Assembly (NCBI GenBank): GCA_965207445.1
Contig: CBDBLX010000002.1
Location: 1,783,849 to 1,847,848, forward strand
Direction: 5' to 3'
Length of the DNA: 64,000 bases
Source: Nitrosopumilus sp.
Lineage (GTDB): Archaea; Thermoproteota; Nitrososphaeria; Nitrososphaerales; Nitrosopumilaceae
Shown: piece after piece, positions 15,001 through 24,000 of the stretch
Position numbering within the stretch: the first letter of the stretch is position 1
How the letters are laid out: each line of letters opens with the position of its first letter
Made by a program: the position numbers

Positions 15001-18000
15001 TGCGCAAATTATACCCACCACCCACATTGCTTGGTAGAGCACCATCTGCAATTGCAAATATCAAAGTACGTAAATGATCAGCTATCATATATACATCCTC
15101 AAGGGGCGTTATGATATTTGATGCCATCTGCTCTGAGATCCCAGTAGTGCTCAATGATTTTTTCCTAACAGTCCACAAGTCATCAGAGCGCTCCAGCATC
15201 TTTGCCACACCAGTATAGTACTCTTTTAGCATATGTGCATCAGCATCAAAACCTATGGCATCCTTGAGGAGAGTATCGACTTGGTTGCCAAAACAACAGT
15301 CGTATGCAGTTGGCGTTCCCATCGTAATCCATGCAAAACGTTCCAACCCAGCACCCATGTCAATTATACGATTATCAAGTGTTGTATGATTCTCTAGCGT
15401 TCCTTGAAACTCGGTAAACACTGCATTTCCCAACTCTAAACCACGCACAAAATACTCTAGTGATGGTCCAAACGAGCCACCGCCTGCCCACACATCCTCT
15501 ACAAATACGATCTCAGCAGGGTTTATGCCAAACCTACGTGTCAATAGTTCATAGTCAAGTCGTATACATTCGTCTTTCCAGTATCCACCTTTTATGTCAG
15601 GAATACAGTGTTGTCCTACCATACAAAAGCTCGAAAAGTGACGTCCCGTAACACCCACATTCTCCAAATCTTTGAATCGCAGACAGGTCTGTGGTACCAC
15701 AAGTGGGTTTGCAGGAAACTCAAAGACTACCTTTGATCCCATTACTCTCTGAAAGTCTACAATCGATGCAATGGTAAAATATAGATCATCACGCCATCTA
15801 CACACAACAGGATATCTTCCAATTATGTCATGTTTGTTTTCTGAGAAAAAAGAGCTTATCTGCTTCCATGATTCAGTATAGTCAAATCGTTTTTTAGTCG
15901 GTGGATCACCGATAAATGAATATGTGTCAGGTGCATCATCAGGACAATCAACTCTATCAGGGTCAAGTGTCCAAAAGAAACGACCACATGTACGGCAAGA
16001 CTTGCGCGTGAATCCAGAGTCCTCAAAGAGATCAACAGTATAGTAACGTTGTGGTTCTGATGAGAATTTTTTGAGGATTTCGTTTTTTTCCAAGTGTTGG
16101 ACAGTTTGTCAATGTCATTATCGTCAATTTATACGATTCTTGTTTAAAGTAGTGTGTTGTATGGTATCAATTCAGGTCAAATCGGCAGTCAGAAACGGTA
16201 CCGGGATTTTGCTATGGGCGGCAAAACGAAAGATGTATTAAACTAAATGCGCGCTTAATTTAATCCTGAAACGAAAAGAGCCTGGCAGGGTCTCACTTCT
16301 TTCTGCTACTGTCAGTCCAAAAAACAAGGCCAGATTGTCTACAAGATTCTTCGTGTGAATCGGTTTGTCATCCGACAGGGACTTTAACGGTAGGAGCATT
16401 ATGTCAAACAGTGAGGGAATCAAGTAACGCGCATTCCGGATTGGGTGGTTTTAAATTATTCTAGAGGTTTGTGACTATGGACAGATATTGAATACTTGTA
16501 TTCCGTGATTCGTGTTTGGCAGATGGTCTCAAGAGTTTACAAGCGTCCAACCTCTTGCGACACTAAGCATATCGATATGATTAAAGATCCGATATTTTGA
16601 TTGATGTTCATCTCGAAGTTGAGCACATATTATGAATACAAAATATTAGAAAACTATCGGATCTTTAATGAAACTATTAAACATCTAGATCTTTGCGATG
16701 ATCTCGTCGAGGCTTATCGGGACATATCCTATATACTCGGAGCAAACGTTGATCGTTTTGTTTCTTCTGTTGATGTGAGGGTATGTAACAGGATGGGTGT
16801 TGTGCTTGGCCCCGTGTATGATCCACCCGTCCCAGTATGGCGGCCTGTAAGGATCGTGCATCAAAAGAAATTCGAAGCCTCTGTACCTTATGGGAAATCT
16901 GTCCTTTATCACCTCTGCTTTCGTAATAGCGTCGGTGTCGCGGTTTCCTCGTATGAAGCGCACTTCGCCGTTTAGCTTTGAAAGCCAAAAGTCTATGGAT
17001 CTTCTTTTTCTCCCATGTGTAATATCGCCTAGGTAATACACTCTGTCGCCCTCCCCCACTCTACTGTTCCAGTTGTCGACCAGTATGCGGTTCATCTGCG
17101 GAGTGGACGAGAATGGCCTCCTGCAGCGCCTTATAATGCTTGTATGATCGAAATGCAGGTCACTAAGCACGAAAACAGTCCCATGGCGTCTGCTTTCGTC
17201 TGTGAAACGCAGACGTTTTCCTGCATTTGTGGCAGATCTTTTCACCATCTTCTCAAAAGCCAACATCGTCTCCTTGAATAATGTCATGTCGAGCGCCTCG
17301 CGCCTGCTGAGCATTCTCCGGAGTATCAAGTCATACTCGCATACTATCGTCCGGTTTTTACCGATCACGCTTACCCGCAACGCGTGCTGTTTATGATCTG
17401 GTAGCTTCCAACTTTCCAAAAATTCCAGTATTCTACCAAATTCTCTCTTGATTCCGTCCTCTGTTTTCTCCGACAGATCCGTGTCGAGGCATATAGTAGC
17501 ATGGGGTTTAAAAGATCCTTTCAGATCGTATGCTTTGAGCTCGCAGAATCTACGAAGACTCTCGACGAGTTTTTGCTGCATTTCCTTCAATTCAGCTGAT
17601 GGAAGTACACGCGCGTGTACGGCACGTCCCGGAAACTCACCAAAATCGCCAAGGCGGAAGCTCACCAGATCATAATCTTTTACTACGTTCTGCACGGTGT
17701 CTATGAGATCTTTCTGGTTCGATGTACTTAATTCTCCCATTATGGTGATATGTGGGACGTACCTGAATTTGCTTTTGATGTCAAAGTTTATCTTTATGGC
17801 CTTTACAAGATCCCTGAGTTTCTCGTTTAGTCGCCCTCCGACCCGGATCTCTACCAAATATTTTTCGGATGTGAGATGGCCGCCGTCGAGACTATTTCGG
17901 GTACCGTTCTTGATCGCGGTTCTAGATTTTCTAGTCCTTACACGCGGACTGGTGCCTGTTGTTTTGGATGCTGAAAATCGATCGACTTGTTTTCTGTTGG

Positions 18001-21000: not shown

Positions 21001-24000
21001 CTTCTGTCATTAGGGTGGGTTGAGCAGCCCGGCCAAATATTGGACACCTGCCAAGAATAATCAGGACGCTTTCTAGAGCACGAACAGACGTTGTAACCAT
21101 CAAGATTTAGAGCCGGATCTCGTAGTGACATCTGGGAGGGAAAGACATGGCAAAGGACACAGATAAGAAATTGCGGATAAGATTGCCGTGCCTGTGAGAG
21201 TGGTCTCAGTTTTGAAGTACACTCTCACGTAGTATTCTGCGTATATCAATAGACTTTATGGCATGGTCTACATTGGAGTGTCGCGTCATGTGACATGGTT
21301 TTCTGTGTAAAAAACTGGCCCATGCAATTCACGCACCTTTATTCGGAGATCTTTGCAATGATCTCGTCAAGGTTCATTGGAGCGTATTTGGTATATTCTA
21401 CACAAACGTTCACCGTCTTGTTTCTTTTGTTAATGTGGGGGTATGTAACAGGATAGTTGTTGTGCTTGTCTCCGTGTATGACCCACCCGTCCCAGTCCAG
21501 TGTTCTGTCAGGGTCGTGCATCAAAAGAAACTCGTAGCCGTCATACTTTATGAGAAATCTGTCCTCTATGACCTCTGCCTTTGTAATGACGTCAGTGTCG
21601 TGGTTGCCGCGTATGAACCGTATCTCGCCGTTCAATCTAGAGAGCCAAAAGTCAATTGGTCTGTTTTTTCTTCCGAATGTCATGTCGCCTAAATAATATA
21701 CCCTGTCGTCTTTCCTTACCCTGTCATTCCAATTACTGATCAGTGTGTGGTTCATATCATAGACGGATCTGAACGGCCTGTCACTGTATTTTATGATGTT
21801 TTTGTGGTCAAAATGCATGTCACTGACCACAAAAATACTTCCTCTACGCCCACTCTCGTCTGTGAATTGGCGAGCATCGTAACTCGGCTGGTTTATCTTC
21901 AACAGACGCAGGAGCCGCCCCAGATTCGTGGAGCGGAATTGGCGAGCATCGTAACTCGGCTGGTTTATCTTGGGATCGTCATATAAATTCCGAGGCCTTA
22001 CTGGCGTAACATCATGTCCTACAAGATATGTAAAAACCGGGGACTGCTCACTATACAAAATCAGCTCCGGCTCGATGTTTTCGTGCTTGAATTCATGCGA
22101 TTTGAGTTCTTTGTTTATATCCTTGAAGAGTTTTCCTGTCCTGCCGATCGCTAACGTGGCGTGAAACTTGAAGGCGTTCTTTCCATCCCGATCATACTCC
22201 GACGCTTGAGAGTGCGGCAACAGTTCTTGCGCAATGTCATACCGCATTTGTTTTAGATCTTCATTGGGTATTATTTTGACCATTATAATGCCACGGCCCT
22301 CAGAAAACAATTCACTATTATCAAATGATGAAAATCCGTCTGTTGAGAATCTTGCTTCTGAATATTTCTTGGCCATGCTGATTAACGTGTTTATTATATG
22401 TCGTTCTGCCATGTGCGTAGAAAATGGCCCGAACAGTGTAATGTGTGGAAAACGCCTCTTCTTGTCACGAAAATCATGCTGAACTTCTTTCATGTAGTAT
22501 CGTACATCGGATCGAAGGTTGCCGCGCAGTCGTATGCCAATCAGCCACGACTCTTTTCCTCTACTGGCGCGCATACCAACATCATACATGCATCAATAAT
22601 TAACATTTAGGTACAACCGAGGTTGGTGCGTAATTGACATTAGTCCTGCCTGTGACCCTTCTATGAGATTATTGAATAATTTAATTTATACATATAAAAC
22701 TCTGGTGATATTTGCAGATGACTTTGCAAGTACGATGCAGGTGGCGATTTGATGAATTACGCACCAACCTCGGTACAACCATAGTAACTGTTCATCTCAT
22801 GTGACCGCATCCAGAGATGGACGTATAAGATGTACTTGGATTCGGGAAGGTGAACAACTGCCAATCCCGTACACAAAAGACAACCACTGGATCCGCCAGA
22901 ATCGCGCTGGTGTCAAAGGCCGTCACAGGTGACCCAAACTGTTTATGCAACCCCGCAGACCGCCTCTGGCATTGCTTCACCAGACCTCTAACCTGCCCGA
23001 GATTTTGCCGACGTGGTTGCCATCATACATAAAGCAGATCTTAGGTCCGGCTACGGCCGACTGCAAGGCGTGATTGTCGCGGACAAGATTTCAAGTTGGG
23101 GTTCTGATGAGTGTCTAACACGTTGGTCACTGCTGTGTTGTGTTGCCATATCATTCACCGGGTCGTCCGCTCCAGTACGCTTCCCCCTCTGCGGCGGTGG
23201 CGCACTTGGCCCCGAACAGGTCGTTATTCACGCCGAGAAATATGCATACACCACCGTCGCACGCGGTTGCCCCTCCGGTGTGTGACGGGTACAGTAGATT
23301 GAACCTGTGGCCCTTGCTGTCCATCCAGATGTCTGTCGCCTCGTTGGGTCCCATGTGGTCTACACCTTCTACCCACGCCAAGTTCTCCGCCACCTGCTCG
23401 TGCGTGGCAAAGCCGTATTCGCCTTTCATGGTGTATGGACAGGTCCCGGTGTACGGGTTCACGTGGTCGTGGTAGTCGTACTCCAGAGTGTCGTGGACAC
23501 GGGCAAGTGCAAGATTGTATGCCCTTGCATCGAACGCGATCTGATGTCTGTCATGTTCCGCGCGTATGCCGTTGATATATTCTAAGTTGGCCCTTGATTC
23601 CTCCTCTGCAGTGTAGAATACGGGATCAAGTATTCCGGGCCATTCCAGTATGCCACCTACTCCTCCTGTCTCGGAAGCGTTGTCAGCCGTGCCGAACATG
23701 TGAGGCTTGTATCGGTCAGAGAACCATTCAATTCCATACATGATACCCCAAATTACAGCAGTGGCAATTATACTAAATATGATGAATTTGCCGATCCCAG
23801 ACATGATGCCGCGTGTGCGGCCGCCCCTACGATATCGCCGCCTCCGTGGCTTCCCGCGTCTGTTGCGCCGTGGTTCTCCCCCGAAAGTGTTGCGACGCAT
23901 GGCCCCTCATTTCAGGCAGAATCCTGAGTTATTGTCATAATACTGATGACAGAATCTTGTCATGTCACACCTCTCGGAGTCTTCGATAAATGCCTTTGGG

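Follow-up and report, generated by a model that had tools for sequence, protein, structure and literature searches.

Excerpts of two published studies describe the opening of a 2',3'-cyclic phosphate by a 2H phosphoesterase followed by the action of a separate phosphatase, and end-healing systems that pair cyclic-phosphodiesterase with phosphomonoesterase steps, namely the bacterial Pnkp phosphatase and phage PNK-HAD (PMC9503650, PMC7824862). The 2H fold is also found in Acb1, coronavirus ns2, rotavirus VP3 and the poxvirus cGAMP PDE, which destroy immune nucleotides, and in the central domain of AKAP18/AKAP7, a larger scaffold protein. AKAP18 keeps the HxT motifs and, according to the titles of its structure entries ('AKAP18 delta central domain - AMP'), binds AMP. 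Here we describe an archaeal locus in which members of a 2H family are joined to a metallophosphoesterase or to two AAA+ modules.

The window analyzed is a stretch of 64,000 nucleotides of Nitrosopumilus sp. contig CBDBLX010000002.1. The survey's finding was a 6-kb, G+C-rich island within it. The G+C content of the island is indeed high (0.475, and 0.519 for g09, versus 0.396 for the genome), but its extent is approximately 8.2 kb and includes a CAP-domain gene. It is bordered by alaS on one side and the L12/L10 ribosomal-protein cluster on the other, and contains the following features:

About 16.1 to 24.35 kb of the window: accessory island
16164..16277, plus strand: left-hand arm of an inverted repeat (114 nt per arm), at the outer island edge
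16567..16679 (approximate), no strand assigned: MITE-like repeat of ~113 nt, immediately after the g07 stop codon
16685-18139, minus strand: g07, 484 aa (longest ORF), 2H phosphoesterase fused to metallophosphoesterase
18155..18439, minus strand: 94-aa ORF inside a window-specific stretch of ~510 nt in the g09-g07 gap
18515-20878, minus strand: g09, 787 aa, pseudo-2H domain joined by a basic linker to two AAA+ modules
20879..21338, minus strand: g10-g09 spacer, with stop codons in every frame
21339-22589, minus strand: g10, 416 aa, 2H phosphoesterase fused to metallophosphoesterase
21864..21971, minus strand: tandem duplication of 72 nt (a 36-nt unit in two exact copies), within the g10 inter-domain linker
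22619..22771 (approximate), no strand assigned: MITE-like repeat of ~153 nt, in the gap separating g10 from the CAP gene
23151..23900, minus strand: CAP/SCP-domain protein gene; Arg-rich N-terminal tail and one membrane helix predicted by eye
24066..24179, minus strand: right-hand arm of the inverted repeat (114 nt), lying upstream of the CAP gene

The right arm of the inverted repeat is 91% complementary to the left arm, which belongs to a repeat with six genomic copies and a TATA-like box. The shorter MITE-like repeat occurs over 70 times in the genome and the longer one dozens of times; at the position of the latter, the related locus L023 carries an Hsp70 gene. The 94-aa ORF has no family match in Pfam and is probably not a gene. 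The g10-g09 spacer is 68% identical to that of locus L022, approximately the neutral level, and neither a gene nor a conserved RNA is evident from its reading frames or this comparison. Island proteins are 76–88% identical between genomes with a dS of about 0.5, whereas in the same kind of comparison the host gene alaS is 65% identical with saturated dS and leuS is 59–70% identical. A related genome, G085, has only ~300 nt between alaS and orf170, with the island absent from this gap and located elsewhere on the chromosome. The island is thus an accessory element of the Nitrosopumilaceae that is mobile and has moved horizontally. The 2H family is patchily distributed, with matches in 24 of 251 family genomes, including the window's own.

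The assignment of g10 and g07 as 2H proteins by the survey is well founded: the paired motifs are HITL/HATL in g10 and HITI/HATI in g07, and the Pfam 2_5_RNA_ligase2 scores are 46.7 and 48 bits, respectively (29.3 for g09; cut-off 27). The metallophosphatase-like motifs that it reported in both proteins are all intact in g10 (SDMHFDH, LGD, GNHD, MHD and HGDKH), but g07 has two substitutions, GNRD for GNHD and HGAKHN for HGDKHN. The g07 orthologue in L023 has other substitutions at the phosphatase motifs, and a picture of two active partners may therefore be wrong. As the first ~70 residues of g07 have no counterpart in this orthologue, translation probably begins at a site further inside the ORF. 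The g10 C-terminal domain matches the Aquifex metallophosphoesterase aq_1665 (8.5e-9) and phrog_547 'phosphoesterase' (6e-40), with a Metallophos_2 score of 24.9, just under the Pfam cut-off of 27. Between the window and L023, dN/dS is 0.16–0.23 for g10 and g07. Phage relatives of the phosphatase domain are found mostly among nucleotide-metabolism and replication genes (15 loci), so a nucleotide substrate fits as well as an RNA end; a tRNA nucleotidyltransferase is nearby in only one of the 15. The 80 best viral-contig matches cover the phosphatase part only, and none is a 2H-phosphatase fusion.

The second protein type of the island, g09, is divided as follows:

20234..20824, minus strand: 2H fold, residues 19-215; Tyr58 and Tyr152 occupy the positions of the two catalytic His
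20092..20233, minus strand: Arg-rich linker, low model confidence
19356..20091, minus strand: first AAA+ module in the protein, copy 2 of a 736-nt DNA repeat
19270..19355, minus strand: junction between the repeat copies, encoding the inter-module linker
18534..19269, minus strand: second AAA+ module in the protein, the other 736-nt repeat copy

A database version of the protein (P0001) starts 15 residues later and has 772 aa. The loss of both catalytic histidines noted in the survey is confirmed and can be specified: g09 reads YISL/YVTL at the aligned HxT positions, which are His in 90% or more of 58 aligned sequences. The AlphaFold model of this N-terminal domain (g09-N) has a core pLDDT of about 90, and all seven Foldseek matches at E ≤ 0.001 are 2H proteins (Usb1, a cGAMP PDE and YjcG). 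With a dN/dS of 0.159 (window versus L023), the dead 2H domain is under purifying selection. The Tyr pair is kept wherever the motif is readable (nine sequences; P0004 lacks motif 1). That both positions changed to the same residue, which then became invariant, and that the second-motif Thr is retained, could be taken as signs of a domain that remains catalytic by an altered chemistry, such as a tyrosine nucleophile. We consider this very improbable, as the first-motif Thr/Ser position is free to be S, V or A and the searches made yielded no precedent. Replacement of His by Tyr does not, for its part, imply that ligand binding was retained.

g09-N is 46–51% identical to the g10 clade, with which it has clade-specific insertions and the linker after the 2H domain in common, and 16–22% identical to the g07 clade. 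Of 80 columns conserved within both the g09-N and g10 clades, the two agree at 66; both His-to-Tyr changes are among the 14 that are switched. Judged from these alignments, the g09 N-domain derives from the g10 clade, its phosphatase having been swapped for an AAA module. There are five close g09 homologues, 64–87% identical over the N-terminal region. The rarity of the 2H-AAA architecture claimed in the survey holds at scale, with only g09's own 50%-identity cluster found among 1.84 billion representatives.

The survey described g09 as a CDC48-like double ATPase in which the N-domain had been replaced. The domain plan itself is sound, since Pfam detects 2_5_RNA_ligase2 and then AAA and AAA_lid_3 each twice, and the best solved-structure matches are VAT and p97 (E about 1e-84). 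A CDC48 with a swapped N-domain is nevertheless excluded: g09 scores 342.8 against the CDC48 family model, far below the cut-off of 802.65, and its modules are a tandem duplicate of one. The closest kin of this module are single-AAA proteins of 340–366 aa from CPR bacteria (49–70% identical), encoded in Hsp70-x-x-AAA operons in all three CPR loci scanned. As also reported in the survey, two proteins (P0137 and P0139) join the same AAA module, 69–70% identical, to HD-RelA_SpoT-TGS.

The two ATPase halves are, as stated there, almost identical, with 8 differences in 736 nt and 2 in amino acids, at a period of 822 nt. Motor features are intact in both modules; the first has Walker A GPPGCGKT, Walker B IIFFDEI, pore loop YIHG and RPGRFD. 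The survey had cautioned that the halves might stem from misassembly or from a very recent duplication and that the cluster might be a decaying import; on such a view g09 would be a functionless recent chimera or an import in decay. In keeping with it, all members of this very narrow family fall into a single cluster at 50% identity, g09 in L022 carries a frameshift, and the island holds MITE-like repeats and tandem duplications. The view is largely refuted, and we regard it as highly unlikely. The junction is bridged by a 146-nt unitig of single depth (19240-19385) and the 736-nt repeat unitig has approximately double depth (four runs of one sample), which argues against an artefact. At least four other assemblies contain double-AAA forms with this junction, and the inter-module linker is common to all double forms, which argues against a very recent duplication. 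Conservation of the Tyr pair and motor motifs where readable (nine sequences), a dN/dS of 0.14–0.16 along all of g09 (0.14 for each AAA module, window versus L023) and the range of 0.14–0.23 over the three genes argue against decay. The duplication is thus real and old. The halves cluster by genome in a tree (support 99/97 for the window pair), and the copies appear to have been homogenised by gene conversion. Two g09 homologues have a single AAA module only.

The gene linkage proposed in the survey is borne out by the three genomes that hold g09: g10 and g09 are neighbours in all three and g07 follows in two, being missing beside g09 in L022. The window's genome has only three CAP genes. In 10 of 16 loci (at least five genera) such a gene stands immediately before the 2H gene, and CAP is the family's conserved partner on the upstream side. 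The survey described neither the CAP gene nor the inverted repeats that flank the island, and did not report its mobility or the connection of the 2H family with a J-domain and with Hsp70. In locus L088 a CAP gene is followed by a gene for a 2H protein fused to a J-domain with an HPD motif, in L089 a 2H gene lies 2 nt behind an Hsp70 gene, and in L023 the gene order is CAP-Hsp70-g10. No Hsp70 gene is present in the window's island. The recurring CAP-2H pair, the occurrence of the J fusion, Hsp70 adjacency and dead-2H-AAA fusion within one family, and the AAA lineage from Hsp70 cassettes would suit a role in membrane-proximal protein handling. The 2H domain would then be mainly a protein or client adaptor, CAP and 2H would recruit Hsp70 (via the J-domain or adjacency) or the AAA+ motor, and RNA or nucleotide chemistry would be secondary or vestigial. 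We find this improbable: each non-AAA member examined has retained the two HxT motifs without exception, which suggests that catalysis matters, and the metallophosphatase motifs are invariant across 53 aligned sequences, which points to real phosphate chemistry.

Our preferred explanation, held tentatively and with somewhat less than even confidence, is a mobile island combining 2H-phosphatases that act on phosphate ends with an AAA+ remodeller guided by a dead 2H domain. Its conserved core consists of a CAP-domain protein anchored in the membrane and, after it, members of a single family with the plan [2H]-[basic linker]-[variable C-terminal module]. In g10 and g07 the module is a phage-type metallophosphoesterase, and the substrate may be a 2',3'-cyclic or 2'-5' phosphate end of RNA or a nucleotide, with the 2H domain opening or cleaving the diester and the metallophosphatase removing the remaining phosphate. 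g09 descends from a g10-type gene that exchanged its phosphatase for an AAA+ unfoldase module of the lineage shared with the CPR-bacterial Hsp70 cassettes; the module was then duplicated in tandem and apparently held nearly identical by gene conversion, and both catalytic His became Tyr, since maintained by purifying selection. g09 is predicted to be a hexameric ATP-driven remodeller, whose non-hydrolysing 2H domain may bind the type of ligand processed by the active paralogues, or a client bearing it, such as a damaged RNA-protein complex, and so bring it to the pore. The CAP partner, predicted to face the cell outside, is not explained by this model. As the island has no RNA ligase, kinase, Tpt1, nuclease toxin or nucleotide cyclase, neither a repair nor a signalling pathway is complete within it.

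The boldest proposal of the survey was a defence module that degrades a nucleotide signal. In such a conflict system the dead 2H domain would sense a cyclic or 2'-5' oligonucleotide made during infection, the AAA+ motor would be the effector and the 2H-phosphatases the off-switch. The structural neighbours of the 2H fold (cGAMP phosphodiesterase, 2-5A phosphodiesterases and Acb1), the mobility of the island, the alarmone-enzyme (RelA/SpoT) N-terminus fused to the same AAA module elsewhere, and the placement of the loci in variable regions near TIR, Roc-WD40, AbiEii, HNH, SF1 helicase and transposase genes are all compatible with it. We nonetheless judge it improbable. Signal-making enzymes (cyclase, OAS-like, TIR and Cas10) are absent from the island of the window and from those of L022 and L023, the adjoining defence-like genes vary by locus, and the island has no known defence signature, PADLOC giving only generic AAA matches (IetA and TRIP13) and none for g07, g10 or CAP.

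Compared with described systems, g10 and g07 resemble the LigT/ThpR-type and tRNA-ligase CPD-type 2H enzymes in their two HxT motifs, 2_5_RNA_ligase2 match and fold, and probably also in acting on 2',3'-cyclic or 2'-5' phosphates. They differ in being fused to a metallophosphoesterase via a basic linker and encoded after a CAP-domain gene, and score 28.5 bits against LigT, far below the equivalog cut-off of 65.7. As in end-healing enzymes such as Pnkp, two predicted phosphoesterase activities could jointly convert a cyclic phosphate to a terminal hydroxyl; however, a kinase or ligase partner was not found in or beside the island, and the domain pair is a different one, 2H with a phrog_547-type phosphatase. 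g09 shares with CDC48, VAT and p97 tandem classical-clade AAA modules, Walker A and B motifs, Arg fingers and an aromatic pore loop, but lacks the CDC48 N-domain and, by inspection, a C-terminal HbYX-like tail; its modules are recent-looking duplicates rather than distinct D1 and D2, and single-module homologues exist. The single-AAA protein of the CPR Hsp70-AAA cassettes, its nearest relative outside the g09 family, has the AAA module alone in common with it, the CPR N-domain being small and unrelated and the window's island lacking the Hsp70 of those operons. AKAP18, among the structural matches of g09-N, likewise places a 2H fold inside a larger protein, but g09 has lost both His and has no sequence kinship to it beyond the fold. 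Finally, g09-N has the same fold as the viral 2H phosphodiesterases, which makes a nucleotide-signal substrate possible; those enzymes are small and stand-alone, whereas g10 and g07 are fused to a phosphatase.

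The island consists of four minus-strand genes, with alaS (13205-16093) on one side and, on the other, a conserved ORF of 170 aa ahead of the L12/L10/L11/NusG cluster in the window. Its G+C content is 0.475, compared with 0.396 for the genome, which contains ~40 such G+C-richer patches.

Features of the island (window positions)
16164-16277 and 24066-24179: 114-nt inverted repeat, arms 91% complementary, bracketing the island
~16567-16679: MITE-like repeat of ~113 nt, >70 copies
16685-18139, minus strand: g07, 2H phosphoesterase and predicted metallophosphoesterase
18515-20878, minus strand: g09, pseudo-2H domain and two AAA modules
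21339-22589, minus strand: g10, 2H phosphoesterase and predicted metallophosphoesterase
~22619-22771: MITE-like repeat of ~153 nt, dozens of full or partial copies
23151-23900, minus strand: CAP-domain gene

The N-terminal part of g09 (g09-N) scores 29.3 bits against PF13563, just over the cut-off of 27. An AlphaFold model of residues 1-262 has a core, residues 19-215, at ~90 pLDDT, and all seven Foldseek matches of g09-N at E <= 0.001 are 2H proteins. The survey's finding that this domain lacks both catalytic histidines was confirmed, and the replacement is specific: tyrosine occupies both positions (Tyr58 in RFPYISLFGPF and Tyr152 in FEFYVTLAVG), at which at least 90% of the 58 family members in the alignment have His. 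The Tyr pair occurs wherever the motif is readable (9 sequences), with S, V or A following the first Tyr motif. Over its first ~215 residues, g09 shares 55% identity with the g10 2H domain, 46–51% with the g10 clade as a whole, and 16–22% with the g07 clade. The insertions and post-domain linker of the g10 clade (FTYL.GH..TP.RPR.LY) are common to g09, up to the start of the g10 phosphatase. The g09 and g10 clades have the same residue at 66 of the 80 columns that each of them conserves, and the 14 that switch include both His-to-Tyr changes and the residue beside the second. The closest His-bearing relatives of g09-N, P0241 and P0242, are g10-like. The nearest relatives of the AAA module are single-AAA proteins of 340–366 aa from CPR bacteria, 49–70% identical. 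Given this closeness to the g10 clade on one side and to CPR proteins on the other, sequence comparison indicates that g09 is a g10-type protein in which an imported AAA module has taken the place of the phosphatase.

The combination is rare. A word-indexed search of 5.8 billion proteins with g09 residues 1-300 returned five homologues besides g09 itself, and phmmer, run exhaustively on 1.84 billion representatives at 50% identity, gave 28 matches at E <= 0.001, among which g09's own cluster alone joins 2H to AAA. When metagenome contigs were scanned with g09, 0 of 35 loci matched residues 1-216. A Protein Atlas search with g09-N gave scores of at most 0.81, which serve as leads only. Our literature searches, which also covered Nitrosopumilus RNA ligases and catalytically inactive 2H proteins, found no description of 2H fused to an AAA, calcineurin-like or J domain; Mazumder et al. 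2002 and Burroughs & Aravind 2016 could contain relevant architectures.

Both flanking proteins carry the H-x-T pairs attributed to them (HITL/HATL in g10, HITI/HATI in g07) and score well above the PF13563 (2_5_RNA_ligase2) cut-off of 27, at 46.7 and 48 bits, respectively, which places them in the 2H superfamily. His49 and His143 (g10 numbering) are invariant across 53 sequences, and the N-domain of the g10 model matches 2H structures in a structure search. The metallophosphatase-like motifs reported for both proteins are complete in g10, where every metal and catalytic motif (D-x-H, G-D, G-N-H-D/E, H, G-H) is present and invariant or nearly so in the 53 sequences; g07 retains part of the set, with GNRD in place of GNHD and HGAKHN in place of HGDKHN. 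Its orthologue at L023, a homologous locus in a relative, has GSHD and DKYN in these motifs. Against Pfam Metallophos_2, g10 scores 24.9 bits (cut-off 27) and g07 has no match; both C-terminal halves match phrog_547 'phosphoesterase' (6e-40 for g10 and 5e-36 for g07). The sole solved sequence relative of these halves is the Aquifex metallophosphoesterase aq_1665 (1xm7), which the g10 model matches at 8.5e-9.

Two papers (PMC9503650, PMC7824862) describe 2H enzymes as opening 2',3'-cyclic or 2'-5' phosphodiesters, after which a separate phosphatase clears the phosphate. By analogy, the g10/g07-type fusion is plausible as a two-step end-processing enzyme; going by family knowledge, its 2H and phosphatase domains would process cyclic or 2'-5' ends in succession. 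The phage context of the phosphatase family does not tell the readings apart, since in 15 loci (75 of 124 listed ORFs scanned, the longer ones) the neighbors are mostly replication and nucleotide-metabolism genes, with a tRNA nucleotidyltransferase at one of the 15 and an RNA ligase at none.

Inside g10, two exact 36-nt copies lying 72 nt apart (21864-21971) form a 72-nt tandem duplication that repeats the peptide INQPSYDARQF in the inter-domain linker. It is the second recent tandem duplication of the island. For the spacer between g10 and g09, both a conserved RNA and a small gene were rejected, as stops occur in every frame and indels are not multiples of three; the spacer is 68% identical to that of the related locus L022, about the neutral level. 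Rfam and tRNA scans of the whole window returned zero RNA genes. Upstream of leuS, the window holds a DDE transposase fragment (8814-9260) and a 941-aa ORF (5263-8088) without any Pfam match.

The C-terminal part of g09 comprises two AAA + lid units in Pfam (PF00004, 221.5 bits over two stretches). Both modules contain GPPGCGKT, IIFFDEI, RPGRFD and YIHG, which we take to be Walker A, Walker B, the Arg fingers (second region of homology) and the pore loop, and both belong to the classical AAA+ clade on these features. The near-identity of the two halves noted by the survey holds: they form a tandem repeat with a period of 822 nt, whose copies, 18534-19269 and 19356-20091, are the same except for 8 of 736 nt and 2 residues. 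Such similarity could suggest an assembly artefact. A single sample, which may be the window's own, provided four runs that were assembled independently. In these, the 736-nt repeat unitig has about double the depth of its flanks, and a separate 146-nt unitig (19240-19385) at single depth spans the junction from one copy into the next. The artefact explanation of the duplication was therefore rejected. Decay might be read from a frameshift in g09 at L022, which could be a long-read error or real. For one genome pair, the window and L023, NG86 dN/dS is 0.159 for the dead 2H domain and 0.140 and 0.139 for the AAA modules, compared with 0.164/0.204 for the g10 domains and 0.227/0.155 for those of g07. 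That g09 is an artefact or a decaying gene is thus largely excluded, and we consider it very improbable.

The inter-module linker (…ISANRHH.QPALRSR…) is shared by the double-AAA forms of the homologues P0002, P0003 and P0004 and of L022 and L023, and the homologues P0005 and P0006 have one AAA module. In a tree of modules, the window halves pair with each other (support 99/97) and the P0002 halves group together; the second halves of P0003, P0004 and L022 still have a distinct loop in common (RKNS…). The simplest reading of these sequences is one old duplication followed by gene conversion and occasional collapse to one copy. The module has also joined other partners: as the survey had indicated, it is fused to RelA/SpoT and TGS domains in two metagenomic proteins (P0137, P0139), in which the C-terminal regulatory region of an HD-RelA_SpoT-TGS protein is replaced by an AAA module 69–70% identical to that of g09.

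In G085, the genome that holds L023, alaS lies ~300 nt from the 170-aa ORF with downstream synteny kept and no island at the site; its own island is ~0.75 Mb away. For this one genome pair, the island proteins are 76–88% identical with dS ~0.5, and the two core genes compared are 65% (alaS, dS saturated) and 59–70% (leuS) identical. These comparisons indicate that the island is mobile. The spacer at the empty G085 site is too diverged for exact junctions or a target-site duplication. The 114-nt repeat is present six times in the genome; its copies contain a TATA-like box and end sharply at the same outer edge. Its identity as the end of a complete IS is unsupported, with six copies only, five in one orientation and an inverted partner solely in the window's pair; it could be a promoter module or a mobile-element end. 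The four other copies continue into a similar downstream stretch, which in two of them reads as a short Cys-rich ORF (MTVAQTVRCKACNGTG…). Both MITE-like families are spread over the 2.6-Mb genome at 85–99% identity, and one such repeat lies exactly at the position of an Hsp70 gene in L023.

Beyond the island, public data contain 188 matches to g07-like 2H-phosphatase fusions, those with names being '2'-5' RNA ligase family protein' of Nitrosopumilus or Nitrosotenuis. A profile search of 60 other genomes of the genus found any match in seven and full-length fusions in two. With a 2H-J protein as query, matches came from 24 of the 251 genomes of the family (that of the window counted), in 12 of 27 genera. 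The 2H module of these relatives always has intact HxT motifs and a basic tail. At L088 (8793-9824), a 343-aa protein consists of an active-looking 2H domain, a long linker rich in Arg, Gln and Ser, and a J-domain that contains an HPD motif; its gene has a CAP gene on one side and an HNH gene on the other. L090 has 2H fused to a zinc ribbon, and stand-alone forms also occur. A divergent Hsp70 (689–731 aa) is encoded directly upstream of the 2H gene in L089 (6217-8912; gap of 2 nt) and in L023 (1969-5487; between CAP and g10). These two are 54% identical to each other and 42% identical to the DnaK-like genes of the window's genome. The window island, its CAP-g10 gap included, has no Hsp70 or remnant, and the genome has ordinary DnaK-like genes only. 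Two of these, on contigs C1 (121 kb; 43952-45478) and C2 (30006-31532), are each 42% identical to the query; C1 may be a duplicated region, a second replicon, or linked to the 5.5% contamination estimate.

A conserved partner is CAP. A CAP gene adjoins the 2H gene at 10 of 16 loci (the window's own counted) in at least five genera of Nitrosopumilaceae, just upstream on the same strand at nine of them. The pairing also occurs in L088, where the genes overlap by 7 nt, in L022, and twice in L023. The CAP protein of 2H loci is predicted to be membrane-anchored, and the window's genome has three CAP genes only. Other neighbors vary (TIR, Roc-WD40, AbiEii, HNH, SF1 helicase, transposases). The locus also reveals a widely conserved CAP-2H gene pair.

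We regard the architecture, descent, selection, linkage and mobility as solid. The 2H family is tied three times to protein-remodelling ATPases (J-domain, Hsp70, AAA+), and of its forms the AAA-fused one alone has lost catalysis yet stayed constrained; our best guess is therefore that the dead 2H domain serves in targeting, tentatively held at somewhat under even chances. The 2H fold could instead act as a protein adaptor, which we think unlikely. A complex prediction for g09 residues 19-215 with g10 scored 0.00 and is not evidence either way. As a more novel possibility, the island might encode an undescribed mobile, CAP-anchored conflict or stress system, in which the Tyr-substituted pseudoenzyme would sense 2',3'-cyclic-phosphate or 2'-5' RNA or nucleotide ends and steer the gene-converted double AAA+ unfoldase (in sister versions, Hsp70 via the fused J-domain) towards clients composed of RNA and protein, for instance damaged tRNA-ribosome complexes. 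We consider this detailed proposal a long shot. Counting against any complete pathway are the lack of a ligase, kinase, cyclase or toxin in the island, the eroded phosphatase motifs of g07, a CAP partner outside the model, and the uninformative phage context. In a sequencing-run search, the four holders listed, all contigs from a single sample that may be the window's own, include no RNA run. If the CAP-anchored sensor proposal were true, it would mean that RNA-end sensing is coupled with protein unfolding in a prokaryote. Should phosphate ends of RNA or nucleotides prove to be what the dead domain recognises, g09 would be the first 2H pseudoenzyme to steer an unfoldase, and the J-domain and Hsp70 versions would show that chaperone machines are generally tied to RNA-end chemistry in these ammonia oxidisers, which are abundant in the sea. 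Whatever its function, the locus offers a clean natural case of domain swapping in a paralogous family, of an AAA module shared across domains by CPR bacteria and archaea, and of concerted evolution of tandem ATPase modules.

Ligase-based RNA repair operons have a ligase and/or kinase alongside, whereas the island has neither: its ORFs and the flanking ones scanned include no RNA ligase or polynucleotide kinase. A defence-signal role, as the survey proposed, appears unlikely. CBASS, type III CRISPR and Thoeris-like systems pair a signal-making enzyme with a sensor-effector, whereas Pfam and PADLOC detected no cyclase, TIR or Cas10 in the island, PADLOC giving generic AAA matches only; a TIR gene lies ~5 kb from the 2H gene in one relative only (L089). 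The anti-phage ATPase IetA/IteA of IetAS is defined by an equivalog score and a protease partner; g09 scores 197.5 against NF042959 (cut-off 510), and Pfam showed no protease gene in the island. The survey's description of g09 as CDC48-like did not hold in the family sense. Against TIGR01243 (CDC48), g09 scores 342.8 where the cut-off is 802.65; CDC48_N is absent among the 25 best of 46 Pfam families listed, residues 52-168 matching 2H instead; and CDC48/VCP has two distinct D1/D2 domains, whereas the g09 modules differ at 2 aa. The CPR cassette unites the AAA gene with an Hsp70-like gene and two further genes (Hsp70-like/~545 aa/~210 aa/AAA at 3 of 3 loci scanned), the other members of which are missing from the archaeal islands. 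What the window island has in common with this cassette is the AAA module alone.
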